Shown here: piece by piece, positions 1 through 25,362 of the stretch
Layout: every line of letters begins with the position of its first letter
How positions within the stretch are numbered: position 1 is the first letter of the stretch
Source of the DNA: Candidatus Melainabacteria bacterium 17Bon1m
GTDB taxonomy: Bacteria; Cyanobacteriota; Vampirovibrionia; Obscuribacterales; Obscuribacteraceae
Length of the DNA stretch: 64,000 nt
NCBI GenBank assembly: GCA_032128875.1
Contig: JAVLKG010000001.1
Coordinates: 128,001 to 192,000, forward strand
Reading direction: 5' to 3'
The notes under the pieces: generated by a model
The model's database searches: none
What the model was told of the DNA's origin: nothing
Seen by the model: the letters and a program-made list of their open reading frames with translations, nothing else
Program-made: the position numbers and the translations under genes

Positions 1-2484
1 AACAGTGTTGTCGAACTCCAGACGCACCTTGAACTCTTCGTTTAACACTAGGCGCGCATTGTAGGTTCCATTGCCCGATTTCTTCTTAAAGCCCTGGATT
101 ACTTCAGTGGTGCCCTTTTTTATTATCGATTTGATTTCTTCTTCGGAAAGTTCTTTGCCAAATGCTTCTTTCCAGATGGTGAATTTGCAGCCTTCTCTCC
201 ATCTGCTGCAGCCGGCAGCTTTCTGATTTAGACGGACGGTGCCTTCTTTGCACTGCGGGCATGTTCCCAAACCGCCGCCGCCACCATTTTCGCCAGGTGT
301 ACCTGCCATTATTTCTAGCCTGACCTTGAAGTCTTCGGTCAACACCAGGCGTGAATCATATTTGCCGCTGCCGTCTTTCTTCTTGAATCCTTTAATTTCC
401 TTCGTGATTCGTTTTTCAACCAACTCTTTGATGTGAGTGTCTGTAATTTCCTTTCCGTAAATGTCACGCCAAATCGTGAAATTGCAACCGTCTTTCCATC
501 GGTTGCAGCCGGCGCCTTTGGGGGTTTGTTTTACGAAACCGACTTTGCATTGTGGGCAAGTGCCGAAGCTCACTTCTCCTTCGCGCGGAACAGAAGGAAT
601 CGACGCACTTTGACTTGCAACGTCAGGAAGCAGCCGTGACACAAATCCTGCAATATCACTCTCAAAAGAGTTGAGTTGCATTTTTCCGTCCTGCATATCT
701 GCAAGACCTTGTTCCCAAGTCGCAGTTAGCGCCACGTCTTTCAAATCTTGGTGCACTTGCTGAATAAGTGCACGTCCCTTTTCGGTCGGCATCAAATATT
801 TTTTCTGGCGCTCAATATAATTCGATTTCAAAAGGCGCTCGATAATTGCCGCGCGCGTAGCGGGAGTCCCCAAGCCCTTTTGCTTCATGTAAGACGCAAG
901 ATCTTCGTCGTCAATTTCTTGTCCGGCGTTTTTCATCGCTGTTAGTAGGGTTCCATCATCGTAAGGTTTTGGAGCGCTAGTTTTGCCCTTCTTCAATTCC
1001 TCTTTCTGTTTTTCGACTTGCTGACCTTTATCGAGGGGCGGCAGTTGTTGCGCGTCTTCAGAGTTGTCTTTATCTCCGTCCGCTTTCTTCTTGCCTTTAC
1101 CTTTTCCACCTTCTTCGTCTTTTTCTTTCTTTGGTTCTAGCGCAGTCCAACCGGCTTCCTTGATGACAAAACCTTTGGCGCGGAATGAATGTTCGCCGAT
1201 GGTGAGAATAACGGTAGTCTCATCACGAACTTCCGCAGGCATGAAAATGCTTAAGAAGCGCAGTGCAACTAGCGAATAGATGTTGCGCTGCCGCTCAGGC
1301 AAGTTGGCTGACGGTGTGTTGTACGTTGGAATGATTGCGTGGTGATCGGTGAGTTTTGCATCGTCAACGTAGGCTTTGCTCAATTTGGGTTTGATCAGCG
1401 CGGTTGTGATTTTGCCCGGCACAATGCCCTCTTTTTCCATTGCGTCTTTAGCAACTTGAGAGGTCGTTGGCGATTTCAAAACCGTCGAGAGCACGCGCGG
1501 TAATTCTGCCACCATGTCTGTCGACAAGTGACGCGATTCTGTACGCGGATAAGATATGAGCTTATGCTCCTCATACAAGTTTTGTGCGATATCCAGTGTT
1601 TCTTGCGCTGTGTACCCAAATCTCTTGTTCGCTTCCTTTTGAAGTGTCAGCAAATCATAGAGAGCCGGTGGTTTGTTTTTCTTTTCTGTTGTGACAACAG
1701 ATTGAACAAGACCGTGTTTTTCCGGTTTGATGGTATCGACGATTTGTTGTGCTGCAGCTTGGTCGTGAAGCCTGGTTTGCGGCTCTTCCGTGGGGGTAAT
1801 GTAGCGAGCTAAAAATCCTGGTGCGAAACTAACGACAATCTCGAAGAATTGTTTTTCTTTGAAGCTCTCGATTGAAATTTGACGATCGACAATCAAGGCA
1901 AGCGTCGGAGTCTGAACCCGACCAATCGTGCACAACTGCCTGTTCATTGCAGTGTATGCTCGCGTGAAATTCAGCCCAACGACCCAATCCGCATGTGCGC
2001 GGGCAGTTGCAGAATGAGCGAGGTTGTCGAATTCGTCTGACGATTTTAAATTTGCAAGTCCGTCTTTAATCGCATCTGCGGTCAACGAACTTATCCAAAG
2101 GCGCTCCACTGGTTTGTTGCTGCCGGATAGTTTGTAAATCAAGCGGAAGATGTGTTCACCTTCACGCCCGGCGTCTGTTGCGCAAATGATTGAAGTGACC
2201 TTCGGATCTAAAAATAGATTTTTGATGGTGTTGAATTGCGAAACTGTTTTTTCGACGACCTTGTACTTCCACTGGTCGGGAATCATTGGCAATTGCGCCA
2301 TACGCCAAGGACCGCCCCAGGCTGGATTCATATCTTCCGGTTCGGCGATTGTGACCAGGTGCCCGTATGCGTAAGTGACGGCGTAGTCGTTGCCTTCGAA
2401 ATACCCATTTTTCTTTGTGTTGGCGCCCACGACGTTGGCAATGTCGCGCGCAACCGATGGTTTTTCAGCCAGTACGACCTTCAT
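1..2484 (-). CDS. topB: DNA topoisomerase III (type IA); the 3' end runs off the window start
   Basis: Absent from the ORF track because the stop is outside the window. Manual translation from ATG 2484 gives MKVVLAEKPSVARDIA, CATDAGREGE, GRVQTPTL, LYEEHKLISYPRTES, DHHAIIPT, GLGTPATRAAIIE and C-terminal Cys-rich zinc-ribbon repeats. Confidence 0.93.
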   Translation of the reverse strand, partial: MKVVLAEKPSVARDIANVVGANTKKNGYFEGNDYAVTYAYGHLVTIAEPEDMNPAWGGPWRMAQLPMIPDQWKYKVVEKTVSQFNTIKNLFLDPKVTSIICATDAGREGEHIFRLIYKLSGSNKPVERLWISSLTADAIKDGLANLKSSDEFDNLAHSATARAHADWVVGLNFTRAYTAMNRQLCTIGRVQTPTLALIVDRQISIESFKEKQFFEIVVSFAPGFLARYITPTEEPQTRLHDQAAAQQIVDTIKPEKHGLVQSVVTTEKKNKPPALYDLLTLQKEANKRFGYTAQETLDIAQNLYEEHKLISYPRTESRHLSTDMVAELPRVLSTVLKSPTTSQVAKDAMEKEGIVPGKITTALIKPKLSKAYVDDAKLTDHHAIIPTYNTPSANLPERQRNIYSLVALRFLSIFMPAEVRDETTVILTIGEHSFRAKGFVIKEAGWTALEPKKEKDEEGGKGKGKKKADGDKDNSEDAQQLPPLDKGQQVEKQKEELKKGKTSAPKPYDDGTLLTAMKNAGQEIDDEDLASYMKQKGLGTPATRAAIIERLLKSNYIERQKKYLMPTEKGRALIQQVHQDLKDVALTATWEQGLADMQDGKMQLNSFESDIAGFVSRLLPDVASQSASIPSVPREGEVSFGTCPQCKVGFVKQTPKGAGCNRWKDGCNFTIWRDIYGKEITDTHIKELVEKRITKEIKGFKKKDGSGKYDSRLVLTEDFKVRLEIMAGTPGENGGGGGLGTCPQCKEGTVRLNQKAAGCSRWREGCKFTIWKEAFGKELSEEEIKSIIKKGTTEVIQGFKKKSGNGTYNARLVLNEEFKVRLEFDNTV

Positions 2485-2723
2485 GATGCTTATCCTGCAA
2501 TGTTTGCGCCAGTCGCAAATCTTCAGTAGCTATTCTTAAACAAAACCGCGAAAAGGTAAACAATTCCGCGGACTTCTCTGTTTTAAATTTTGATCGGATG
2601 TATCTGCTCTTGCTCTTTGGGATATCTTGGCTGTATGGATGTGGAAACCGATTCCGTTTGAATGAGTTGCGTCTCAACAACGGCACCGGTTTGACACATC
2701 ATCAAAAGCGGGAAATCCTGAGC

Positions 2724-5042
2724 TTATTTAGCAGCTGTTTTACTGTCTATGCTTTCGAGCGTCCTTTTCGCTGAAGAAGCTACGAACATATTGTCGTCCT
2801 CGGACAGGACGGTTAACAGGCGCAGGGGGATGGCTGAATTTGTTGAGAGCGCAAGACGCACGTCGTCGCTTGAGTCTTTGGAGAGGAGCTCAAGGATTTC
2901 ATCTGGTGCGTTTGGATTTTCTCCTATGCTTGTCCGCACGTCGATACTGGAATCTGTTACCAGCTTGAGAAAAATCTCCAGCGGAAGGTTGGCATTCTCT
3001 GCGACGCGGCTGCGTACACGCTCACTGGGATCGTCGGAAAGTTTTTTCAGCGCAACCTCGGAAGTGTGTGGATTTCCCGCTAAAACAAGGCGGATATGCA
3101 ATTCTTCATTTGAACGAGGTTTGTTTTCCGTGCTCTCGTTTTTTTGCAGTTCGTGAATTGCATTTATAAGAGTCGACAGCTTTTCACCAGTAACAGGTTT
3201 TGCGATGTAATAGTTCATTTTGGATCGCAGTGCATCAAGAATATCTTCTTGTCTTTCCGACACAGTTAAGAGCACGACAGGAATACCTTTGAGAGTCGCA
3301 TCTTTGCTAAGCTCTGTCAGGACCTCGTGCCCATTCATGCGAGGCATATTTAAGTCCAGCAACATGATGTCCGGAAGTTTTGAGCCTGAACTCTTCAGTT
3401 CTCTTAAATACTCGAGTGCTTCGACACCATCATTTTTAACCGTGAGACTATATTGAAAATTTGAGTGTTTTAGTGCTTCTTGTGTCAGTCTTACATCCGA
3501 TGGCGTGTCTTCCACTAATAGAATTTCTATTGAATTTAGCATTTTCATTTTTCTGTTTCCCGCCTTTTTTGTTGCGGGCAAAGTAAACAAGAAAATTGCT
3601 CCTTGCCCAAGTTTTGAATCAACCCAAATGTTTCCACCGTGTGTGGTTACGATTTTTTTGCAGATTGCCAGCCCGACGCCTGCACCCGGATACTTTACCT
3701 TTCCGTTTAGGCGGGAGAACATATTGAAGATCTCGTCCGAATATTTGGGATCAATGCCAATGCCGTTGTCTTCAATTGAGAAGAGCCACTTGTTTGCAGA
3801 GGATTCCGCCCTAATGGAAATCTGAAGCGGTTCAACACCGCGATATTTGATAGAGTTACTCAAAAGATTTTGAAACAGTTGAATAACTTGCGTTCGCTCT
3901 ACTGCAACGTTTGGCAATGTTCCTACTTCAATATTCGCACAGGACTCAGCGAAAGACGCGCTGAGATTCTGCATTACCTCATCCAGAATCACATTGCAGT
4001 CCGAATCTGCATTTTGAATTGCATCTGTAGGAATTTGGGAATGAGCAAGCACTGACTTAATCAGAACTTGCATGCGTTTTACTCCATCCAAAATGTAGTC
4101 GATGAATTCTCTGCCGTCGTCATCTAATTTCCCGCTGCTATTGTCTCCAAGTAGTTGTGCAAAACCCTGTATTGTTCTTAGCGGCTCTTGCAAGTCATGA
4201 GCGGCAATCTTTGCAAATTGGTGCAGCTCCTCATTTCTTATAAGGAGTTTTCGAGTGCGTTCTTCAATCAGCGCTTCTAGAGCCTGACTCGACCTTTTCT
4301 GCTCTGAGATGTCCCGCACGAATGTGCATAGAATGAAGTGTGCATCTTCTTTGACTCGAAACATCGTAAGTTCAATTGGAAATTCCTTCCCATCTTTGTG
4401 TGTAGCAATAAGTTCCTTGCTGATTTTGAGAAGTTTTCCTTCGTGATTGGCGAGGAATGCTTCTATGTCTCGCAAATATTTTCGCCGCAAATGCTGAGGA
4501 AGAATGAATGAAAGGTTTTGCCCAAGTGCTTCTCTCTTGCCCCATCCAAATGTTTTTTCCGCCTGTGCATTCCAGTCCGTAATCAATCTTTTGGCGTCCA
4601 TTGATATAAAAGCATCATACGAATTTTCCAAAATAACCCTCAGTCGCTCTTCGCCATTGCGCAAAGCGACTTCATTTCTATTTCTCTCGACGGCGTATTG
4701 CAGACATCGAACAATGGAGTCGTCACTTGCAACACCTTTGAGAAGGCAATCCTGTGCCCCGTCTCTGACGAACTTGAGAGCTAATTCGTGATCTGCATCT
4801 GTAGTGAAAACAACTATCGGAATTCCCAAAGCATTTGCTTGGATGCGATAGAAGGACTCAACCCCGCATCCCTTATTTTCAGTAAATACGCTTAAGAGAA
4901 TCGCATCGACTCGTGTCTTGGCGAGCGCTAACAGCGCTTCTTCGACCGTTGGTGCCACGCTTACTTCAAAGTCATACATTTGCAGCATCGTGCAAAGCGC
5001 GCGCGCTTCTTCGAAGAGATCTTCCACTATGAGAATGTTCAT
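2724..5042 (-). CDS. Hybrid sensor histidine kinase: REC-PAS-HisKA-HATPase-REC plus C-terminal LRV/HEAT-like repeats
   Basis: N-terminal ILIVED receiver, PAS (DWNAQAEKTFGW), AHDLQEPL H-box, QNLLSNSIKY, DNGIGI and GAGVGLAIC boxes, second receiver (ILLVED...LLDLNMPRMNG), and D..VR...A.N repeats. Confidence 0.92.
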   Translation of the reverse strand: MNILIVEDLFEEARALCTMLQMYDFEVSVAPTVEEALLALAKTRVDAILLSVFTENKGCGVESFYRIQANALGIPIVVFTTDADHELALKFVRDGAQDCLLKGVASDDSIVRCLQYAVERNRNEVALRNGEERLRVILENSYDAFISMDAKRLITDWNAQAEKTFGWGKREALGQNLSFILPQHLRRKYLRDIEAFLANHEGKLLKISKELIATHKDGKEFPIELTMFRVKEDAHFILCTFVRDISEQKRSSQALEALIEERTRKLLIRNEELHQFAKIAAHDLQEPLRTIQGFAQLLGDNSSGKLDDDGREFIDYILDGVKRMQVLIKSVLAHSQIPTDAIQNADSDCNVILDEVMQNLSASFAESCANIEVGTLPNVAVERTQVIQLFQNLLSNSIKYRGVEPLQISIRAESSANKWLFSIEDNGIGIDPKYSDEIFNMFSRLNGKVKYPGAGVGLAICKKIVTTHGGNIWVDSKLGQGAIFLFTLPATKKAGNRKMKMLNSIEILLVEDTPSDVRLTQEALKHSNFQYSLTVKNDGVEALEYLRELKSSGSKLPDIMLLDLNMPRMNGHEVLTELSKDATLKGIPVVLLTVSERQEDILDALRSKMNYYIAKPVTGEKLSTLINAIHELQKNESTENKPRSNEELHIRLVLAGNPHTSEVALKKLSDDPSERVRSRVAENANLPLEIFLKLVTDSSIDVRTSIGENPNAPDEILELLSKDSSDDVRLALSTNSAIPLRLLTVLSEDDNMFVASSAKRTLESIDSKTAAK

Positions 5043-6863: not shown

Positions 6864-6936
6864 TTGAGCCTACCGCGGGTTGGTAAGATAGTACCTATAT
6901 ATGGCGGTATGGCTTGACAAATGATTGATTAACTCG

Positions 6937-8928
6937 ATGGCGGAACTGGACAAAAAGTACTGCCCTTCTTGCTACCGGCAATTTGACGAGGATATTGTCA
7001 AATGCCCGTATGATCGCGCCGAACTGCGCGGGCGCCATAATGATCCGTTAATCGGCAATCTATTCGCCGAACGATACTTAATTGAGTCCGTATTGGGACT
7101 TGGCGGCATGAGCATTGTCTACAAAGCTCAGCATAGTCTGATGAATCGCACAGTCGCCATCAAAATGCTGCATCAAAAACTGAAAGACGATAGCATGGCG
7201 CTCGAACGCTTTAGACTCGAAGCGCAAGCAGCGAGTTCTTTAAACCATCAAAATGTAATAACTGTCTATGACTTTGGTATTTCTCCAACAGGCGAACCAT
7301 TTTTTGTGATGGACTGTCTGAATGGAGAGAGTCTGGAGAATATTATCGACAGAGACGGTCGCATCGAATTCCGGCGCGCGATCAACATATTCAAGCAAGT
7401 CTGCGATGGTCTCGAAGAAGCACACAGAAAGGGCATTGTGCATCGTGATTTGAAGCCTGCGAATGTAATTCTTATGCGTCGCGATGATGGCGGCGATCTC
7501 GTCAAGCTGGTGGATTTTGGAATTGCAAAACTGCTTCCACAAACAGGAAAGGTGCAGCAGCAGCTAACTCGTACCGGTGAAGTATTTGGCAGTCCGATTT
7601 ACATGAGCCCTGAGCAATGCCTTGGGCGTGAATTGGATACGCGCTCTGATATTTATGCACTCGGTTGCCTGATGTACGAAGCCGTTGCTGGTGAGCCGCC
7701 CTTTATTGGCGACAGCTTTTTAGAAACCATGAACATGCACGTGGACAACCATCCGAAACTCATCAGTGAAAAGGCGCCTGATTCTGAAGTGCCCGCTGAG
7801 TTGGAAGCAGCAATTCTTTGCTGCTTGCAGAAAGACCCAGATATTCGCTTTCAAACTGCCGGCGAGCTTAAGGAGGTTCTTTCCAGTGTTGCTTCAGCAT
7901 TAGGTGATGGAAGCACTGCAGCTGGTGGCACTGCCTCTAGGTCTGAAACGCACCCATATGGAAAAGGGAAGCAGAAGCGCGCTCCGGTTGAGATGATTGT
8001 TGTATCAATGGTGGCAAGCGTATTGCTGGTTATGGTTGCATTTGTGGCATTATGGCCTGGTGCTGCGGACGACAGAGGCGCACCACTCGATAAATTGCTC
8101 TGGTCAATTTACTTGTCTGAAGCAGAGGATGACGTTAAGAAGGGCAAGTACGAGAGTGCTGAAAGCAATTTTGCCAAGTCGGAGGAACGCTGCAAGAGGT
8201 TTGGAGATCGCAATCAGCGACTTCAAACAACTTTGCGGTCGAAAACAGTTCTATATGAAAAATGGGAAGGTCATGCTGAGGACTTGGAGAAGGTAAATAA
8301 TCAGATCGCAGCGATTGATACCGAACGCGTCAAGCAAGAGTATTTTGAGCTGATGAAGCTTATGGATACGTTCGAATCGAAGGAGCACTCGGCAGTCTCG
8401 CAAAGCAGCAAAATGCTGAAAGCTGAAGCGGAGATACCGAAATTTGTTTCTGTTTCGTCCAAACTTTACAGTAAAGGTTTGTGGTTGGAGCAAGAGGAAT
8501 TGCTCAAGCGATGTCTCGCGATTGAGAGAAAGCTTGTTGGCGACGACAATCTGATTATCGCGAAACTGGAGACTCGGTTGGCTGAGTGTTTCGTTGCGCA
8601 ACGAAAGTTTTTGCAAGTACGTCAGTTGTTATCGCACGCCCTAAGCGTCTTTGAAAAGCATAGTGGAGACGACCCGAGTTCTGCAGTCGCTGCTCTCAAC
8701 AAGCTTGGACAATTCGACCTGGATCGCAATGATTTCAAGCGCGCTGAGCCTGAGTTGGCTAGTGCTCTCAAGCGCGCCCGCAGATTGTCTAAAAAGGACA
8801 ATGTTCTTCTGCTGTGCCTGCGGAGCTACGCTGATCTATTACAGCTGACCGATCGTGTCCCAGCTGGCGATGTACTCGACAGAGAAGCAGATCTCTTAGA
8901 GAAGAAAATGCCAGTCGACGTACCGTAG
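6937..8928 (+). CDS. Hanks-type Ser/Thr protein kinase with N-terminal zinc ribbon, one TM helix and TPR-like C-terminus
   Basis: CPSC...CPYD, LGLGGMSIVY, VAIK, HRDLKPAN, DFG, YMSPEQ and DIYALG motifs. The ATG at 6937 is preferred over the track start at 6925. Confidence 0.93.
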   Translation: MAELDKKYCPSCYRQFDEDIVKCPYDRAELRGRHNDPLIGNLFAERYLIESVLGLGGMSIVYKAQHSLMNRTVAIKMLHQKLKDDSMALERFRLEAQAASSLNHQNVITVYDFGISPTGEPFFVMDCLNGESLENIIDRDGRIEFRRAINIFKQVCDGLEEAHRKGIVHRDLKPANVILMRRDDGGDLVKLVDFGIAKLLPQTGKVQQQLTRTGEVFGSPIYMSPEQCLGRELDTRSDIYALGCLMYEAVAGEPPFIGDSFLETMNMHVDNHPKLISEKAPDSEVPAELEAAILCCLQKDPDIRFQTAGELKEVLSSVASALGDGSTAAGGTASRSETHPYGKGKQKRAPVEMIVVSMVASVLLVMVAFVALWPGAADDRGAPLDKLLWSIYLSEAEDDVKKGKYESAESNFAKSEERCKRFGDRNQRLQTTLRSKTVLYEKWEGHAEDLEKVNNQIAAIDTERVKQEYFELMKLMDTFESKEHSAVSQSSKMLKAEAEIPKFVSVSSKLYSKGLWLEQEELLKRCLAIERKLVGDDNLIIAKLETRLAECFVAQRKFLQVRQLLSHALSVFEKHSGDDPSSAVAALNKLGQFDLDRNDFKRAEPELASALKRARRLSKKDNVLLLCLRSYADLLQLTDRVPAGDVLDREADLLEKKMPVDVP

Positions 8929-10814: not shown

Positions 10815-10970
10815 TACGAGCGAAACATCTTTTTCTGCGCTTTTGATTTTGGACAAAGCACAATCTTTGCTTTAACTCCTTATATAGGGTGGCGGCAGCT
10901 TAAGCTCTATGACCGATATATGTGATTGGTCCCGTCTGGATATCTGATCGCCGCGACTTTAGTCTGGACA

Positions 10971-11320
10971 GTTGATCCGGCGCTTGTTAACAGAAAGTGC
11001 TTTGCGATCTCTATGTCTGAAGCGCATCTCTATAATGCCAAGAATGTGATCGTTAAATGATCTATGGGGTAGTTGATCGTATGCGCTGACGCGATAAACT
11101 AATTGCATAACCGGTGAGCACGTCACTTAAATGTTGAGTGCTTTGAGCCGAGGGGCATTTGTGGAAACTTCAGATCGGCGTCGATCGGAAACCGTAGCAA
11201 AAAGCCCGCACCACGTGAAGGACTGACTGAAGCGTGATGAAATACTGAGCTCTAATGCAAAGAGCAGTCAGGCAGTAGTAAGAATACCAGCGCAGAGCAA
11301 TCTGGCTGGTATTTTTATTT
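10971..11320 (+). ncRNA. Multicopy ~350-bp element, copy 1: upstream box, TATAAT (11031-11036), ~275-nt structured RNA candidate and terminator
   Basis: Near-identical to 12663-13011, 14301-14649 and 24079-24427. Stems show compensatory changes between copies and no reading frame is conserved in all four. Confidence 0.75.
11283..11320 (+). terminator. Intrinsic terminator of element copy 1
   Basis: AATACCAGC-GCAGAGCAATCTG-GCTGGTATT followed by a T-tract. Confidence 0.85.
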
Positions 11321-11367
11321 GCGCCCAACGGACGGCGCGCAGCCTTCAGACTCCATTTCGAAATCGG

Positions 11368-11515
11368 CCGCAGCGCCGGACTCCAGACGGCTTTTTCTGG
11401 GAGCGCCAGCTTCCAGCCGGCTTTTCTGGGAGCGCCAGCTTCCAGCCGGCTTTTTCTGGGACCGTCGGCTTCCAGCCGGCTTTTCCTGGGAGCGCCGGCG
11501 GCTCGCCGGCTTTTC
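11368..11515 (+). repeat. Tandem REP-like 29-30 bp units (TGGGAGCGCCRGCTTCCAGCCGGCTTTT), 4 clear and 1 degenerate
   Basis: Units start at about 11368, 11398, 11427, 11457 and 11487, each with an imperfect GCCGGC palindrome and no unique spacers. Confidence 0.85.
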
Positions 11516-11564
11516 TATAATGGAGAAGGAAACGCCTCTTTATTAGGCTGCCGGTCCACAATCT

Positions 11565-12599
11565 ATGTCGCTTCTCCTTCAGATTTCACTAGCGTTCGTT
11601 TTTCTTCTTTGGATACTTCCAATAATCCGAGGAGTTGAAATCTGTTTTCGCTCCATAACTCGTTTGTTAGGCGACTCCGCCGATCCCGATAGAGGTGCTC
11701 CTGCGCTCCTTGTCCCAAAGGAAGTTGAGCGCGATGTGCTTCGCCCTATCCCCTTCACTGATCATCGCTACCAGGAGCTCAGGAATGATGTGATTCGAGC
11801 TCGTGCATTGCTTAATCGTTCGCTGGATACTCAACTCGAACTTGAAGAACAGATTCGCGAACTGGAAGAAATCCCTCAGCATCAGGAAGCCGCAGTTACA
11901 GCAGATGCCATTGCAAGACTTCGGAAGGAAATCGATGAGCTTGCTCCACAGCACGACGCTCTGCGCGCTGAGCTGGCTGATAAGGAAAGCGCACTGCAGA
12001 AGGCTTATCCATTGAGACCGATGAGAGGCGCTGCTACAAAAACTGCATCTGCCGTCAAGAAAGAAAACCAAGCCCGTATTGCTAAGGCTGTTCAAACCAA
12101 AATTGACTTTGATGTCAAAAGACGCGAAGAATTTGCGAAAGAAACAAGGCATCGTGCTCAGATTCTTGCGCACATGCGCCTTGTCATTGACGCAGTTGAG
12201 AAACATGCAGTTGGTAAGAGGCGCATCGAAGAGTTGAAAGTCACGATGGAGACTTCGCACCGAGAGATTGAGACAATTAACGCTGTTCTCGCCGAGTGGG
12301 AGTCGAATGAAGATTTCCTATCAGAGAAGTTGGCGACCTTTGAAACCGGCAATGAAGCATTGCAGCGGAGAGTTGAAGAAGCCGCTCAGCGAGACGATCT
12401 CGAGGCTTTGGATGAGGCAGAGATGTTGCTGCTTGAACGTCAGGTTCAAGCCAGTAAGTTCAAGCTTTTGCTGGAAGACTCAATAAAGCAGGGGACCGAG
12501 TTGAAGGAATTGGGCAATAGATTCGAGAAAGTTCGCATTGCTATTTTGAAGAAGATTGTGGCAATTGAACCTAACTATCTCGATTTTAGGGTTGATTGA
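11565..12599 (+). CDS. Membrane-anchored coiled-coil protein, PspA/IM30-like (paralog 1)
   Basis: N-terminal hydrophobic helix and heptad-rich body. Shares the Y..L....IR.RALL.R and LR.EL..KE.....AY motifs with 13154-14236. Confidence 0.7.
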   Translation: MSLLLQISLAFVFLLWILPIIRGVEICFRSITRLLGDSADPDRGAPALLVPKEVERDVLRPIPFTDHRYQELRNDVIRARALLNRSLDTQLELEEQIRELEEIPQHQEAAVTADAIARLRKEIDELAPQHDALRAELADKESALQKAYPLRPMRGAATKTASAVKKENQARIAKAVQTKIDFDVKRREEFAKETRHRAQILAHMRLVIDAVEKHAVGKRRIEELKVTMETSHREIETINAVLAEWESNEDFLSEKLATFETGNEALQRRVEEAAQRDDLEALDEAEMLLLERQVQASKFKLLLEDSIKQGTELKELGNRFEKVRIAILKKIVAIEPNYLDFRVD

Positions 12600-12662: not shown

Positions 12663-13011
12663 GTTGATCCGGCGCTTGTTAACAGAATTCGAATTGCGAT
12701 CACTATGTCTAAAGCGCATCTCCAAAATGCCAAGAATGGGATCGTTAAATGTACTGTGGGGTAGTTGAACGTATTTGCAAACGCGATAAACTAATTGCAT
12801 GAACGGTGAGCACGTCACTTAAATGTTGAGTGCTTTGAGCCGAGGGGCTTTGCGGAAACACTAGATCGGCGTCGATCGGAAGCAGTAGCAAGAAGCCCGC
12901 ACCACGTGAAGGACTGACTGAAGCGTGATGAAATACTGAGCTCGGATGCAACGAGCAGTCAGACAGTAGTAAAAATACCAGCGCAGAGCAATCTGGCTGG
13001 TATTTTTGTTT
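12663..13011 (+). ncRNA. Multicopy structured element, copy 2
   Basis: Begins GTTGATCCGGCGCTTGTTAACA, has -10-like CAAAAT, and ends in the terminator AAAAATACCAGC...GCTGGTATTTTT. Confidence 0.75.
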
Positions 13012-13049
13012 TTGCTGATTTGCGCGGATGCGCTGCCCGAGAGAGTGGC

Positions 13050-13107
13050 CGGAGCGTCAGCTTCCAGCCGGCTTTTGCCTGGGAGCGCCGGCGGCTCGCC
13101 GGCTTTT
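13050..13107 (+). repeat. Two REP-like units of the same family as 11368-11515
   Basis: GGAGCGTCAGCTTCCAGCCGGCTTTT and TGGGAGCGCCGGCGGCTCGCCGGCTTTT, followed by TATAATGGAG as in the first cluster. Confidence 0.85.
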
Positions 13108-14300: not shown

Positions 14301-14649
14301 GTTGATCCGGCGCTTGTTAACAGAATTCGTTTCGCTATCGCTATGTCCGAAGCACATCTCGATAATGCCAAGAATGAGATCGTTAAATCATCTCTGGGGT
14401 AGTTGAACGTATTCGCAAAGGCGATAAACTAATTGCATAACCGGTGAGCACGTCACTTAAGTGTTGAGTGCTTTGAGCCGAGGGGCTTTGCGGAAACACT
14501 AGATCGGCGTCGATCGGAAACCGTAGCAAGAAGTCCGCAACACGTGAAGGACTGACTGAAGCGTGATGAAATACTGAGCTCGAATGCAACGAGCAGTCAG
14601 GCAGTAGTAAGAATACCAGCGCAGAGCAATCTGGCTGGTATTTTTGTTT
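14301..14649 (+). ncRNA. Multicopy structured element, copy 3
   Basis: Same boundaries and stems as the other copies, -10-like GATAAT, terminator at 14612-14649. Confidence 0.75.
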
Positions 14650-14785: not shown

Positions 14786-17700
14786 TTGATTGAGGAAACT
14801 CTCTTCACTGACCGGTGGTGGATGAAGCAGGTATCGCTTCCAATTTTTGCTCTCTTAGAAGGTGGAAACAGGCAGGAATTCTCTGCTGAAGAGCTGCCTT
14901 TGCGGGCTGAGCTGTTCAGCGCCGACCAGATGGAGCAGCATGGCAGGACCCTTGCCGGACTTCATAAGGTTGAATTTGGGCGAGCGCCAGATCAGCTGTT
15001 GGCTCGCCTGGCAGAAAACGAGCAGGTTTTGACTTATGCCTGCAATATGCTCACAGAAGCCGTCAATGACAACAGACGCATTACCTCTGCCGGTGAATGG
15101 CTTCTAGACAATTTCTACCTGATCGAAGAGCAGATAAGAACAGCCAAGAGGCACTTACCGAAGGGCTATAGCCGGGAATTACCTCACCTGATCAGTGGTG
15201 TGTCAGTGGGATTTCCTCGGGTCTATGACATCGCGCTGACCAATGTTTCGCATGGCGATGGAAAGTTGGACCCGGATAGCCTCGATCGTTTCGTGGCTTC
15301 TTACCAGACTGTCACAGAGTTGAAGATTGGCGAACTGTGGGCTATCCCGATTATGTTGCGGTTGGCTCTCATTGAAAACTTGAGAAGAGTCGCAGTGCGA
15401 ATGGTTATTCATATGAATGAGCATTTGCAGGCTGGTATCTGGGCCGACAAAATGATCGATGTAGCGACCAGTGATCCCAAAAGTTTGATTCTCGTGATCG
15501 CAGATATGGCGCGCTCCAATCCACCGATGGTAAGCGCTTTCGTCTCGGAGTTAGCTCGAAAGCTGCAAGGGCAAAGTTCGTCTCTGGCTTTAGGGCTGAC
15601 ATGGATGGAACAGCGTTTGGCAGAAGCCAGCACCTCCATTGAACAAATGGTACAGGCTGAAGCGCAAATTCAAGCTGCTGACCAAGTTTCGATCAGCAAC
15701 AGCATTGGCTCGCTTCGCTTTCTGGGAGCCATGGACTGGCGGAAGTTTGTTGAAGGGCAAAGCGTCGTTGAAAAAACTCTTCTTGAAGATCCGTCTGGTG
15801 ACTACGGCAAGATGGATTTTTCCACTCGTGACGATTACCGACACGTTGTTGAAAAGCTGTCAAAGAAATGTCGGTTGTCCGAAAAAGAGATTGCGCTTGC
15901 TGCGGTACAACTGGCGAAGAGCAATAAAAATGGTGATGCGAGAAGTAAGCACGTCGGTTTCTATCTGATTGATAAGGGACTGCCGGAACTTGAGAAAACG
16001 GTCGCAGTCAGATTTTCTCTCTGGGATTTGTGCAGACAGTTTGGACGCAGATATTCGCTCATCTCCTATCTGGCTCCAATATTTCTTATTACTTTTGCAG
16101 TCACCGCTGCACTTGCATACGCTGCACATGCGCATGGTGAATCCAAACAGTTTGTCGCAATTACCGCCGTAGTTACATTCGTCAGTGCCAGTCAGTTAGC
16201 CGTATCCCTGGTGAATTGGCTGGCGACCCTTCTGATTCCATCCAAACCGCTTCCGAAGCTTGATTACTCCAAAGGAATTCCTCGCGAGGAACGAACTTTA
16301 GTAATCGTCCCCACGATGATCTCGAGCGTTAGCAATATTGAAGATCTCGTAGAAGCCCTCGAAGTTCGCTTTCTTGCCAACCGAGACGAGAACTTGAGCT
16401 ATGCCTTGCTGACGGACTTTCTCGATGCTGACTCCGAATCGTTACCGCAAGACGAACTCTTGGTGAAAACGATAACCAGCAAGATCAATGAATTGAATCA
16501 GAATTACAAGTCCGGTCCGCGCGATATCTTCTTTCTCTTTCATCGGCCTCGTTTATTCAATCCAGCCTCAAATGTTTGGATGGGCTATGAACGCAAGCGG
16601 GGAAAATTGTCCGCGCTGAATAGTGTTCTTCGTGGAGGCAGTGCAGATTGCTTTTCAACTATTGTCGGCGACTACAAGTCGCTGGTTGGCACCAAGTTTG
16701 TAATCACGTTAGACACCGATACACAGCTTCCGCGTGATGCCGCCCGGCAATTTGTCGGCGCGATGATGCATCCTCTGAATAGAGCGCATTTCGATGAAAA
16801 CAGAAAATTGGTAACCAGTGGATATGGGATTCTTCAACCTCGCGTTGGAGTTTGCCTGCCCGGCACAAGTCTGTCTCGCTATGCGGCTCTGCAGGGAAAT
16901 GATCCTGGTATAGATCCTTATACTCGGGCTGTTTCTGATGTATACCAGGATGTGTTCTATGAGGGCTCATTCATCGGTAAAGGTATTTACGATGTTGAGA
17001 TTTTTGAAAAAACGCTAAGTGATCGTTTCCCTGAAAACTGCATCCTAAGCCACGATTTGCTCGAAGGCTGTTACGTGCGTTCTGGACTTTTAAGCGACGT
17101 CCAACTTTACGAAGAGTATCCCTCCGGTTACAGTGCAGACGTCGCCAGGCGTCATCGCTGGATTCGTGGTGACTGGCAGATCATTTCATGGTTAGGCGGG
17201 GATGTTCCTGTTTTAGGAAAGAGAAGGCAAAAAAATCCAGTTTCCTTTCTATCGCAGTGGAAGATCTTTGACAATTTACGCCGAAGCCTTGTACCTTCAT
17301 CGCTAGTTACAATGTTGATTGTGGGCTGGGTTTCACCGTCACCATCTTGGATTTGGACTGCATCAGCCTTGGCGATCCTTTTCATTCCTTCAATCGTCTC
17401 TTCTTTGTTGGAGTTAGTACGTAAGCCTGAAGACGTTCTCTGGAATCAGCATATTGCAAGCGCTCTGAGTTCTTCTGCGCGCAATTTGGGGCAAGCGATG
17501 TTCAATCTCGCGTGTCTTCCGTACGAAGCAACATACAGTCTTGATGCCATCTTTCGAACTCTGTTTCGCATGACTGTGACGAAAAAACATTTACTGGCTT
17601 GGTATCCGTCGAGTGAAGCCAATCGCAAACAACGTCGAGATTTCGTGGGCATTTATTCCCAAATGTGTAGCGCACCCACAATTGCATTAGGTGTTCTTGC

Positions 17701-20700
17701 TTATGTGATTGCGCAAAAGCCATTAGATATTGTTGCTGTTGGACCGATAGTCTTGCTCTGGATGTTTTCGCCGGCGATTGCCTGGTGGTTGAGTCGTCCG
17801 CTAGCAGTTAGTGGTTCCAATCTGACTGACGAACAACGTATTTTTCTTCGCAAAATTGCTCGTAGGACATGGGCTTTTTTCGAGACATTTGTAACGGCTG
17901 AAGACCATTGGCTGCCACCTGATAACATGCAAGAGTTGCCTATACATGTGGTTGCACATCGCACGTCGCCAACCAACATGGGAATGTCTTTATTGGCCAA
18001 CCTCGCGGCTTACGATTTTGGCTTTATTCAGTCGGGCGAATTGGTTGAGCGCACGTACAGCACCCTGGTGACAATGCGTGCTCTAGATAGTTATAGAGGG
18101 CATCTCTATAACTGGTATGACACTATAACGCTTAAACCGCTCAAGCCCTTGTACGTGTCCACTGTAGACAGCGGCAATCTCGCTGGACACCTTATCACAC
18201 TGAAAGCTGGACTCTTGGAGCTGTTTGATGAGCCAGTAATCTCCGTGCAGGTCTTTTCTGGACTACAAGATACGCTTGACGTGCTCAAACAGACTGTCGG
18301 GGAGAAGATTGTTATCCCTGAATTAACCACATTTGATGACCTTCTCAAGACAGCGAAACTTGACCCTCCTACCACAGTCACTGGTCTTCATGAATGGTTC
18401 GAGCAACTTCAGAAATGCGCTGAAGAAATAACCATTCGCGTTGGCGAAACACCGGGCACGGAGATAAAGCATTGGGTGCAGGCTCTTAAACGTCAGGTGT
18501 CTGCTGCGTTGATGGAGCTGACTTTGTTGATTCCGTGGACGGCGTTGCCGGGCTTGAATACTGTGTCTGAGAGGATCCCGCAGATTGAACAGACTCCTAC
18601 TTTGCGAGAACTGTCAACAATATACGACAGCCTGTCTCCGATCATTCAGAAGAGTTGTACGTCTGACCGTCCAATGCAAGAGCTAAAATGCTTCGCCGAA
18701 TTGTTGGCGCTCCTTTCCGAAGCCAGTCGTCGCGCAAAGGAGCGCATCGGCATTATTAGTCAACTTGTGATGCATGTCGAAGAACTAGCCCAAATGGAAT
18801 ATGACTTTCTTTATGACAAAAGCAAAAGGTTGCTGGCGATCGGTTATAACGCCGATGAGAAAAGAGTGGATGCCAGCTACTACGATTTGCTCGCGTCCGA
18901 AGCGCGTTTGTGTAATTTCGTCGCGATCGCACAGGGGCAGTTGCCGCAGGAAAGCTGGTTTGCTCTGGGACGGTCGTTAACAACGGCGGGTGGCAAGCCC
19001 GTGTTGTTCTCCTGGTCTGGCTCCATGTTTGAATATTTAATGCCATTGCTGGTAATGCCAAACTATAAAAATACTCTGCTAGATCAAACATACCATGCGT
19101 CAATTGAGAGACAAATTGAATACGGTAATCAGCGAAATGTGCCATGGGGAATTTCCGAGTCAGGGTATTTCGCGGTTGATGCGCATCTCAACTACCAGTA
19201 TCGTGCCTTTGGTGTTCCCGGGTTAGGCTTAAAACGTGGATTGGCGCAAGATCTGGTTATTGCGCCATATGCGACGGTGCTGGCATTAATGGTGGTGCCT
19301 GATGAGGCCTGCGAAAATTTGGAGAGGTTGACGTCTGAAGGTTTCGCAGGATCATACGGATTTTATGAGGCTGTTGACTATACTGCCGCGCGAATTCCGC
19401 GCGGACACAGCAGAGCAATTATTCAATCGTATATGGCGCACCATCAGGGCATGAGCTTTCTCTCCCTTGCTTACACTCTGCTCGATCAACCTATGCAACG
19501 GCGCTTTGTGAGCGATCCATCATTTCAATCTACTCTACTTTTGCTGCAAGAGAGAATACCTAAGGCGACGGCGTTCCACTCGCAAACGGCAGAAACCGCA
19601 GAGGTGCGCTTCGGGTCCGCGGCTGATGAAGCGCCGGTCCGTTTCTTTAGCAGTCCTAATACGACAGTTCCCGAAATACAGCTACTATCCAACGGTCGAT
19701 ATCATGTGATGATGACGAACGCGGGCGGCGGCTACAGCCGCTGGAAAGACCTGGCTATAACCAGATGGCGTGAAGATACAACGCGCGACAACTGGGGAAC
19801 GTTTTGTTTTATTCGGGACGTATCAACCGGTGAATTCTGGTCGACAGCATATCAGCCAACTCTCAAGCAACCCGATAGATACGAAGCAATTTTCTCTGAG
19901 GCACGTGTCGAGTTCCGCAGGCGCGACTTTGATTTCGACACACATACCGAAATCGTCGTTTCTTCAGAGGACGATATTGAGTTGCGAAGAGTACGCATAA
20001 CAAATCGCTCCCGGTCACGCAAGACGATTGATGTGACGAGCTATGCTGAAGTTGTGCTTGCAAATCCTAATCATGATAATGCGCACCCTGCATTTAGTAA
20101 TTTATTTGTGCAAACGGAGCTTATCGATCAGGGTCATGCAATTCTCTGCAACCGCCGACCGCGATCTGCGAATGAGCATCAGCCGTGGATGTTCCATTTG
20201 ATGTCTGTTCATGGTGCCACCACAGGAGATGTGTCACGAGAGACAGATCGTGCGAAGTTTATTGGCCGTGGAAATTCACTCTCTAACCCTTCTGCTATGA
20301 ACACTCCGGGACTGCTATCGAATACCCAAGGTTCTGTACTTGATCCTGTCGTTTCGGTTCGTTATCAAATAGTTCTTGACCCTGAAAAGTCCGCGATAGT
20401 AGACATAGTTACCGGTGTTGCCGACACCAGAGAAACTTGCATTAGCTTGGTCGAGAAATATCAGGATAGAGGGCTTGCTGATCGTGTTTTTGATTTGGCC
20501 TGGACACACAGTCAGGTTGTGTTGCGTCAGTTGAACGCTAATGAAGCGGACGGTCAACTTTATGCTCGCTTGGCGAATTTAGTGGTCTATGCAAGCAGTA
20601 CACTGCGCGCCGACGCTTCCGTGATAATCAAAAATCGGCGTGGTCAGTCCGATTTGTGGGGATATGCAATATCCGGCGATTTGCCGATTGTTTTGCTGCA

Positions 20701-24078: not shown

Positions 24079-24427
24079 GTTGATCCGGCGCTTGTTAACA
24101 CAACACGTGCTGCGATCGCTATGTCCAAAGCGCATCTCGATAATGCCAAGAATGGGATCGTTAAATCATCTATGGGGTAGTTGAACGTATTCGCAAACGC
24201 GATAAACTAATTGCATAACCGGTGAGCACATCACTTAAGTGTTGAGTGCTTTGAGCCGAGGGGCTTTGCGGAAACACTAGATCGGCGTCGATCGGAAACC
24301 GTAGCAAGAAGCCCGCACCACGTGAAGGACTGACTGAAGCGTGATGAAATACTGAGCTCATTTGCAATGAGCAGTCAGGCAGTAGTAAGAATGTCACCGC
24401 AGAGCAATCTGGGTGGCATTTTTGTTT
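24079..24427 (+). ncRNA. Multicopy structured element, copy 4
   Basis: Same boundaries as the other copies. The terminator stem is changed to AATGTCACC/GGTGGCATT but still pairs. Confidence 0.75.
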
Positions 24428-24447
24428 GTTTGCTTTTGGGAGGCGTC

Positions 24448-25362
24448 ATGGAAGTTGGTGTAATCGGGCTCGGCAGTATGGGTTTCGCGATAGCTTCGCA
24501 CATTCTGGTGGCAGGGCACGAAGTTACTGTCTACAACCGCACCGAGGAGAAAGCACATCCTTTAATGGAAGATGGCGCAATGTTCTCGCATGATCCTGCC
24601 GGTGCTGCGCAGGGAGACGTGGTCATCACGATGCTATCCGACGATCACGCTGTCGAGAGTGTGGTGTTTGGAACAACAGACGCTTCAGGTGGCACTCAGA
24701 ATGAAGCGGTCGACGGATTGCTAATGCATCAAGCTCCGGATTGTATACATGTTTCGATGAGCACCATCGGCGTTCAGCTGGTGAAACGGCTCGAGCGTGA
24801 GTACGCTGCTAAAGGAAAGCAATTTATTTCCGCGCCTGTGATGGGGCGTCCAGATGTCGCTGAGCGCGGAGAATTAGTTGTTATGGCATCTGGAAGCAAA
24901 GCTGCAATTGAGAAGTGTCAACCTGTGTTTGATGTAATTGGCAGAATTACTCACGTGGTTGGTGACAGCCCTGTGCAAGCTGCAACGATAAAGCTTGCAG
25001 CAAATTTTATGCTTAGCTCGATGATAGAGACACTCGGCGAGGCTTTCGCACTCGTGCGTAAGAATGGAGCGGACCATCACAAGTTCTTAGACATCATGGC
25101 GAAGGATTTTTTCAAATCACCCATATATGAAAAATACGGAGCAATTATTGCGCACGAAAAATTTGGTGGTGGTGCGTTCACCGTGAAGTTGCAAGAAAAG
25201 GATACGCGTTTAGCAGTTGCTGCGGCGATTGAATCGCAAGTTCCGATGCCGCTGTTATTTGCAATTGAAAACGCTTTTCTCAGTTCTATCGGACAAGGTA
25301 AAGGCGATATGGACCCTTGTGCTATTGCGCAACTTGCCGCCGAGAATGCCGGTTTGCGTTGA
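24448..25362 (+). CDS. NAD(P)-dependent beta-hydroxyacid dehydrogenase (3-hydroxyisobutyrate/6PGDH-like)
   Basis: GVIGLGSMG, YNRT, SMSTI, APVMG and KLAAN motifs. GGAGG precedes ATG 24448; the track start at 24367 lies inside the element. Confidence 0.92.
   Translation: MEVGVIGLGSMGFAIASHILVAGHEVTVYNRTEEKAHPLMEDGAMFSHDPAGAAQGDVVITMLSDDHAVESVVFGTTDASGGTQNEAVDGLLMHQAPDCIHVSMSTIGVQLVKRLEREYAAKGKQFISAPVMGRPDVAERGELVVMASGSKAAIEKCQPVFDVIGRITHVVGDSPVQAATIKLAANFMLSSMIETLGEAFALVRKNGADHHKFLDIMAKDFFKSPIYEKYGAIIAHEKFGGGAFTVKLQEKDTRLAVAAAIESQVPMPLLFAIENAFLSSIGQGKGDMDPCAIAQLAAENAGLR

Follow-up and report, generated by a model that had tools for sequence, protein, structure and literature searches.

Sequence hallmarks of a standard kink-turn in a 5' hairpin of the orphan bacterial RNA poplar-1

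Among the known systems close to the element reported here are the kink-turns of riboswitches. In the part of PMC4316175 that treats them, the kink-turns of the SAM-I, c-di-GMP-II, cobalamin and T-box RNAs likewise occupy a hairpin arm within a bacterial RNA that is pseudoknotted and highly conserved, and kink-turns such as those of SAM-I, RNase P and Kt-7 fold the arm back and bring its loop onto a receptor. According to the portions of PMC4382518 that deal with folding, elements having a Watson-Crick or G:U pair at 3b:3n are poor folders in Mg2+ alone; riboswitch kink-turns mostly have 3n=G and fold in Mg2+, and the kink-turn of U4 snRNA, which is protein-dependent, is biased to 3b:3n G-C and G-U. 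Poor folders can also be stabilized by tertiary contacts, as set out in the same part of PMC4316175, and a C:G pair at -1b:-1n favors kink-turn folding in the relevant sections of PMC8191799. The last of these papers (Huang et al. 2021) lists kink-turns among the 224 RNAs of the Weinberg collection, namely those of Actinomyces-1, drum, HOLDH as well as RAGATH-18, and poplar-1 is absent from that list.

The poplar-1 RNA (RF03041; Weinberg et al. 2017, PMC5737381) is an orphan RNA, in Rfam already but uncharacterized. Its published model has the same helices P1-P4 that are supported by covariation here, but four features described below are missing from it: the non-bulged strand, the hairpin at the 5' end, the promoter-like element and the terminator. 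The words poplar, k-turn and kink do not occur in the main text of PMC5737381, although the motif drawing in its supplements may show more. A full-text literature search for poplar-1 found only a drinking-water preprint (10.1101/2025.10.18.683149), in which poplar-1 is named, by Rfam annotation, among the RNAs enriched in intracellular RNA of a drinking-water metatranscriptome. A poplar-1 kink-turn in print was found neither in that search nor in the main text of PMC5737381, the supplement drawing aside. Its absence from the list of Huang et al. 2021 is expected if one strand of the motif lies outside the published alignment.

The kink-turn of poplar-1 adds a further example to a textbook motif and enlarges an orphan RNA family that was already known; it is missing from the list of the survey devoted to kink-turns in this RNA collection (PMC8191799). 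The RNA itself gains a hairpin at its 5' end, a promoter-like element and a terminator, and a pseudoknot is shown; the extended alignment would improve the Rfam model. The gain is modest, the motif itself being textbook.

Four copies of poplar-1 and their relatives

The window, meaning the whole 64,000-nt stretch that was analyzed (positions 128,001 to 192,000 of contig JAVLKG010000001.1 of Candidatus Melainabacteria bacterium 17Bon1m), carries four copies of a repeated RNA of ~210 nt each, all of which were assigned by an Rfam scan to RF03041 with scores of 143.8-150 bits against a gathering threshold of 110.5, over model positions 1-141. All RNA features given here are on the + strand. In copy 1 the kink-turn hairpin (11112..11150, from the four-copy alignment and homolog covariation) overlaps the start of the Rfam core at 11142..11282, scoring 143.8 bits against the threshold of 110.5. 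Copy 2 has its kink-turn hairpin at 12804..12842, its Rfam core at 12834-12973 and a terminator extending to ~13011; the corresponding features of copy 3 are at 14442..14480, 14472-14611 and to ~14649, and those of copy 4 at 24220..24258 and 24250-24389, with a terminator stem that ends near 24419. It is very probable that the repeat is poplar-1, that its transcript is 5'-longer than the published model and opens with a standard kink-turn hairpin, and that the GUGAUGA...CUGA string within it is no box C/D motif.

The genome of the window has eight copies of the RNA. Matches to poplar-1 were found in 59 of 101 related genomes; it is present in 55 of 60 genomes of the window's family and in all three genomes of a sister family in the same order, and in none of 37 genomes from other families of the class. 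The Obscuribacterales are non-photosynthetic relatives of cyanobacteria. To our knowledge poplar-1 had been seen in no classified organism when it was first described, and it is now placed in this order.

A pattern for the 3' domain, run over named species genomes, gave 151 loci. Among the 80 of these that were listed, 52 carry by hand count the labels Obscuribacterales, Obscuribacteraceae, Obscuribacter or Melainabacteria, six are labeled "Cyanobacteria bacterium" and 22 have other labels, which are probably binning or labeling noise. Typical poplar-1 copies occur in records labeled Bryobacterales, Amphritea, Planktothrix, Flavobacterium psychrophilum, Actinobacteria and Alphaproteobacteria. 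The loci under odd labels include L072, L080, L081, L090, L112, L113 and L123, a pattern that suggests mislabeled or mis-binned contigs.

The 5' hairpin in the four copies and in homologs

An initial annotation of the repeat, made from the letters alone, had proposed a kink-turn with a canonical stem, a 3-nt bulge and tandem G-A pairs. The strings that it listed, for this and for the other motifs discussed below, were located by copy alignment and pattern searches in all four copies at the positions given there. In copy 1 the 5' side of the motif reads CGGT (11112-11115), GA (11116-11117) and GCAC (11118-11121), and the 3' side GTGC (11138-11141), TTT (11142-11144), GA (11145-11146) and GCCG (11147-11150). 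In kink-turn terms CGGU and GCCG (11112-15 with 11147-50) make the NC helix, G2n A1n (11116-17) and G1b A2b (11145-46) supply the letters of the sheared pairs, UUU (11142-44) is the bulge L1-L3, and in the C helix (11118-11141) GCAC/GUGC is continued by UCA/UGA and capped by a terminal loop. These letters are invariant across the four-copy alignment. The pattern GGTGAG-N14-40-GAGCC has exactly four matches in the window, at 11113, 12805, 14443 and 24221, against 0.69 expected from shuffles, of which 1 in 100 reached four. The four copies are paralogs, 89-100% identical over the stretch that holds the kink-turn and the box-like strings, and therefore give no independent proof of conservation.

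The RF03041 model starts at UUUGAGCCGAG, with the consensus UUuGAGCCGAG, all eleven positions of which are marked unpaired. The model thus includes the bulged strand, as conserved positions drawn single-stranded, and leaves out the non-bulged strand and hairpin (11112-11141). Homologous loci were gathered without use of the 5' strand, by genome searches with the Rfam model and by the 3'-domain pattern. A core-only profile (11153-11282) run on 209 loci gave 219 matches, and the dropping of seven with a core start after position 45 and of eight at a locus edge, together with the collapse of duplicates, left 162 distinct upstream fragments. The 3' strand was set in each by its distance from P1, and the 5' partner was chosen solely by standard pairs at four NC and four C positions.

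The tandem G.A/A.G, the 3-nt bulge and at least six of the eight flanking pairs are kept together in 157 of the 162 distinct homologs, many of which come from related genomes, such that the counts are not of independent events. All eight flanking pairs are formed in 126, seven in 30 and six in 6 of the homologs, and shuffled 5' regions had eight of eight in 49 of 3240 cases. Full pairing depends on the length allowed for the bulge: a length of 3 nt gives 126 of 162, and lengths of 0-2 and 4-6 nt give 0-13. With the site located from the flanking helices only, 2n1n is GA in 157 and 1b2b is GA in 159 of 162, and the conservation of the G-A positions, on which the initial proposal hung, is upheld by these figures. 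The bulge is variable, with 18 different triplets and UUU in 91 of 162. The pair -1b:-1n is C:G in 159 of 162 homologs and 4b:4n is C:G in 160; 3b:3n is G:U in 159 with no drift to A:G or to 3n=G. At 6b:6n the pair is G:C in 142, C:G in 8, U:A in 2, G.A in 8 and something else in 2. The distance from 1n to 1b, which is the span of the C arm, lies between 25 and 29 nt in 146 of 162, and this steadiness indicates that the hairpin arm holds its length while its sequence changes.

Covariation in the hairpin was counted on a MAFFT alignment of 134 distinct sequences. Of the hairpin cells 96.5% are paired, as against 83.4% in shuffled alignments and 28.5-46.9% when the partners are slid; changes on both sides are seen at 8 of 11 pairs (205 cells), and the covariation score of 0.423 against 0.175 was matched by none of 500 shuffles. 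Conservation of the motif and covariation of its helices are hereby demonstrated, every sequence-level hallmark of a kink-turn is present, and at the level that sequence comparison can reach the 5' element of poplar-1 is a kink-turn; the tight geometry of kink-turns, about 50 degrees with cross-strand A-minor hydrogen bonds, is predicted for it by the sequence rules. Five of the 162 homologs depart from the motif (L031, L135, L141, L052 and one in which the pairing search misplaced the site). L031 has 2n=A, a variant known from Kt-23 (PMC3985660), and L052 has a 4x2 loop in a copy that falls below the Rfam threshold. In the near-identical L135 and L141 both partners of the first sheared pair are altered, to 1b=A and 1n=C.

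Architecture and expression of the whole RNA

For the whole RNA 170 unique full-length sequences were thinned at 97.5% identity to 152, of which 150 were used in the alignment. Ten helices are supported, with 97.2% of the cells paired, a value as high being reached in none of 500 shuffles, and with changes on both sides at 50 of 57 pairs. Mapped onto copy 1 and seen in the covariation, P1 is 11153-56/11204-07, P1a 11160-62/11197-99, P2 11173-77/11182-86, P3 11209-16/11232-39, with both-side changes at seven of seven pairs, and P4 11243-53/11261-77. The internal loop between P1a and P2 is nearly symmetric, 10x10, its letters are almost invariant, and GGAAAC occurs on both of its strands (11163-11172 and 11187-11196).

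The strings CTGACT (11223-11228) and AGTCAG (11266-11271) are present and complementary, and the initial annotation had drawn them as a stem around the box-like letters. The pairing itself is sound, since all six of its pairs show both-side changes and 98.9% of the cells are paired. It does not form an ordinary stem: helix covariation places the 5' strand CUGACU (11223..11228) in the loop of P3 and the 3' strand AGUCAG (11266..11271) in the internal loop of P4, and the two are joined as a pseudoknot.

Copy 1 ends in an intrinsic terminator (11284..11321; MFE fold and covariation) with the sequence AUACCAGC-G-CAGA-GCAA-UCUG-GCUGGUAU, then UUUUUAUUU, which in the MFE fold gives stems of 8 bp and 4 bp separated by a bulged G, closed by a GCAA loop and followed by a U tract. 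All 12 of its 12 pairs show changes on both sides, and it begins 6-7 nt after P4 without overlap; neither the helix mapping nor the MFE fold brought up a pairing that would switch against it, a point of difference from riboswitches. A terminator scan of 10900-11600 missed it, the stem being bulged, and flagged three hairpins in the tandem repeat at 11426-11510.

Upstream of copy 1 a promoter-like region (11066..11100) is conserved to the most distant homologs in an nhmmer alignment. It consists of GGGGTA(G/C)TT at 11066-11074 and a -10-like TAAACT at 11095-11100, and upstream conservation reaches ~11053 even in the most distant genomes. Among the homologs the box TAnAnT lies 16-20 nt past GGGGTA(G/C)TT and ends 6-7 nt before a conserved CA. 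A putative transcription start near A11107 is suggested by the -10-like box and by the covariation of the NC helix. A sigma-70 promoter scan of 10900-11600 gave no site at threshold. The GGGGTA(G/C)TT element is kept across two families and is unlike a sigma-70 -35 box; it may be the site for a dedicated sigma factor or an activator.

Presence of the RNA in RNA libraries is directly demonstrated. Parts of the stretch occur in eight RNA runs, and three metatranscriptome libraries from three studies yielded one contig each, from 11118, 11122 and 11126 to 11290, with no differences from the window, such contigs giving neither ends nor levels. A fourth library has a summed depth of 1507-3322 across 11111-11255, against 37-39 in the flanks. 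The three short contigs start at 11118-11126, and the non-bulged strand at 11112-11117 is not covered by them. Their common end at 11290 falls where the paralogs diverge and may thus be an assembly break; it is not read as a 3' end.

Box-like strings, support of the kink and gene context

The stretch GTGATGA (11234-11240), AATA (11241-11244) and CTGA (11245-11248) is common to all four copies and had been matched to boxes C (RUGAUGA) and D (CUGA). That part of the initial annotation fails. The pattern TGATGA-N2-8-CTGA has seven matches in the window against 1.61 expected, three of them at unrelated places, and is unspecific. In the whole-RNA alignment RUGAUGA is kept in 36 of 150 homologs and CUGA in 140 of 150, and a nearly invariant A-(A/G)-AUACUGA comprises the junction and the start of P4. 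Helix mapping on the same 150 sequences assigns every letter of 11234..11248: GUG closes the 3' strand of P3b, the A after it is bulged, UG belongs to the P3a 3' strand, and AAAUA, which begins with the last A of the box C letters, is junction; CU is in the 5' strand of P4a and GA is in an internal loop. RUGAUGA is poorly kept because its positions form the 3' strand of the covarying helix P3. In a C/D kink-turn a terminal stem has to bring the boxes together, or else, in a K-loop, D' has to precede C'. Here box C precedes box D by 4 nt, which is the wrong order, and therefore neither a C/D kink-turn nor a K-loop can form. The supposed box C/D motif is a chance resemblance, to which two ordinary helices contribute some of their bases and a conserved junction the rest.

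A search of the genome for L7Ae-family genes, proposed along with the box C/D reading, likewise gave no partner. The L7Ae family PF01248 has no match in the genome of the window, which is 93% complete, and is absent from 12 of 12 congeners; among 39 genomes of the family there are two weak matches, inside frames of 482 aa and 697 aa. Fibrillarin (PF01269) also has no match in the 93% complete genome of the window. Controls for PF01248 and PF01269 matched in 7 and 5 of 14 reference genomes. An L7Ae partner was rejected, no gene for one having been found in the genome. What archaeal box C/D sRNAs have in common with poplar-1 is limited to RUGAUGA and CUGA, and to the poplar-1 copies of the window's genus and of close relatives; they differ in that poplar-1 is without a conserved box C, has the boxes in the wrong order and at the wrong spacing, and comes from a genome in which no L7Ae or fibrillarin gene was found. 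That poplar-1 is an RNP of the L7Ae/YbxF type with a box C/D-like module is therefore extremely unlikely and already largely refuted, although both strings do occur in all four copies and although the class of its kink-turn, with G:U at 3b:3n, usually requires protein. The initial annotation had left a choice between a compact tertiary fold and an RNP; a compact tertiary fold is plausible, an RNP of the L7Ae type is unlikely, and an RNP with some protein from outside that family is possible.

The 3b:3n pair of poplar-1 is nearly always G:U, and the kink is thus predicted to need help in order to fold. Riboswitch kink-turns differ here in that they mostly have 3n=G (in the folding portions of PMC4382518). 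The four kink-turns in the list of Huang et al. 2021 were taken from the same collection of orphan RNAs by the same motif definition and, like poplar-1, have C:G at -1b:-1n in three of four cases, whereas their 3b:3n is A:G or C:C and they are good folders, as given in that section of PMC8191799. Similar in this respect is the 5' stem-loop of U4 snRNA, which has G-C or G-U at 3b:3n and, as poplar-1, is predicted not to fold in Mg2+ alone, in the same portions of PMC4382518. U4, however, is eukaryotic and has an L7Ae-family protein, 15.5K, as its binding partner, and no such gene was found in the genome of the window. A near-invariant G:U kink-turn without L7Ae homologs would mean that the full RNA folds by tertiary contacts or that a new kind of binding protein exists. 

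The preferred reading, held with roughly even confidence, is that a tertiary contact would hold the kink. The base of the hairpin would form a standard kink-turn in which a C helix ending in C:G, a 3-nt bulge, tandem sheared G.A/A.G pairs and a 4-bp NC helix succeed one another, the NC helix pairing the 5' end of the RNA with the GCCG that stands two bases before P1. The kink would then swing the ~10-bp hairpin arm back along the axis of NC and P1, and the hairpin loop, which is mostly A-rich, may pack on the pseudoknotted core. An arm with a terminal loop able, in principle, to dock on the core is a riboswitch-like feature. Judged by eye in the 134-sequence alignment the hairpin loops are mostly A-rich, and they are too variable to align; arms of constant length with A-rich loops fit a role in docking. 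A protein from outside the L7Ae family as the holder of the kink is possible and on the unlikely side.

Two other readings of the hairpin bear on this choice. The kink-turn may be real and serve mainly as a platform for protein, poplar-1 being then an abundant stand-alone RNP with a non-L7Ae protein. This is rather unlikely, even though several features fit it: the G:U at 3b:3n in 159 of 162 homologs recalls the G:U and G-C pairs that go with protein dependence in U4, 3n=G going with riboswitches (folding portions of PMC4382518), a conserved promoter-like element and a strong terminator accompany every copy, the downstream genes are heterogeneous, and the short RNA stands far above its flanks in read depth. 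It is weakened by the 13 of 65 copies that lie within 60 nt of a same-strand ORF, leaving no room for another promoter, and by the fact that tertiary contacts can stabilize poor folders too (PMC4316175, in the part cited above). A kinked hairpin is in turn challenged by the MFE model, which pairs A1n and G2n with L1 and L2 (A-U and G.U) and leaves UGA bulged, an alternative open to the 111 of 162 sequences with a UUU or UUC bulge; the 5' loop would then be unkinked, either a plain bulged hairpin or a strand in alternative pairing that governs the terminator, the 3' arm of which resembles GGUG of the 5' strand by inspection. Such an unkinked loop is very unlikely, given that the bulge triplet varies, that 51 of 162 sequences cannot form the MFE pairs whereas 159 of 162 retain G1b A2b, that a plain bulge would not show such conservation, and that the putative complementarity to the terminator amounts to only 4-5 bp.

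Gene context bears on whether poplar-1 acts as a leader or as an independent RNA. The genes that follow the four copies in the window encode a protein of 344 aa with no Pfam match, one of 360 aa that weakly matches PspA, a glucan synthase-like protein of 2915 aa and an NAD-binding dehydrogenase. The third of these, an ORF at 14786-23533 directly downstream of copy 3, combines GT2, glucoamylase-like and GH94 domains in the architecture of a cyclic beta-1,2-glucan synthase. After copy 4 a GGGAGG (24438-24443) precedes the ATG of the NAD-binding dehydrogenase at 24448, 29 nt after the terminator stem; so near the terminator there is hardly room for a promoter of its own, from which it follows that the terminator is read through at some rate. 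With start codons picked by a simple rule, a same-strand ORF is found downstream of 52 of 65 copies and within 60 nt for 13, the latter suggesting a leader role for at least some copies. Of 53 downstream ORFs 42, from other genomes, were compared, ten of 96 aa or less and one duplicate being left out; they include Peptidase_M16 (4), NAD_binding_2 (3), TauE, dUTPase and CoaE (2 each), single cases of RuvX, TetR, TPR, DUF2141, DUF1269, M20 and YkuD, and 17 with no match. No common functional theme was found among these 42 ORFs, and in this poplar-1 is unlike the riboswitches. Such unrelated downstream families leave a metabolite riboswitch with a coherent regulon unsupported, and speak instead for poplar-1 as an independent gene or for a signal that is global.

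A stand-alone small RNA, possibly an RNP, comes close to an even prospect, and a cis-acting attenuator is quite possible while short of even; what is left of the expectation goes to both roles or to something else. A further proposal, which is rather unlikely, makes poplar-1 the sensor of a new class of attenuator or riboswitch, or has its kink-turn, being of the class that fails to fold in Mg2+, recruit a bacterial kink-turn-binding protein of a new family. As a sensor it might read a global signal, for example a signaling nucleotide, by means of the pseudoknotted core and of the internal loop with its two copies of GGAAAC; the 5' kink-turn would build the binding pocket, as in c-di-GMP-II or SAM-I, and binding would set the read-through of the terminator into many unrelated genes.

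Upstream of the poplar-1 array an ORF at 6925-8928 encodes a Ser/Thr protein kinase with C-terminal TPR repeats, and it is followed by an aldo/keto reductase and a PLP-dependent enzyme. Between the terminator of copy 1 and the next ORF lies a tandem array (11372-11514) of 4.8 units of 30 nt with the consensus AGCGCCGGCTTCCAGCCGGCTTTTTCTGGG, in which each unit folds into a GC-rich hairpin with a T run behind it and TATAAT stands after the last unit; similar units occur after copy 2 at 13040-13105.
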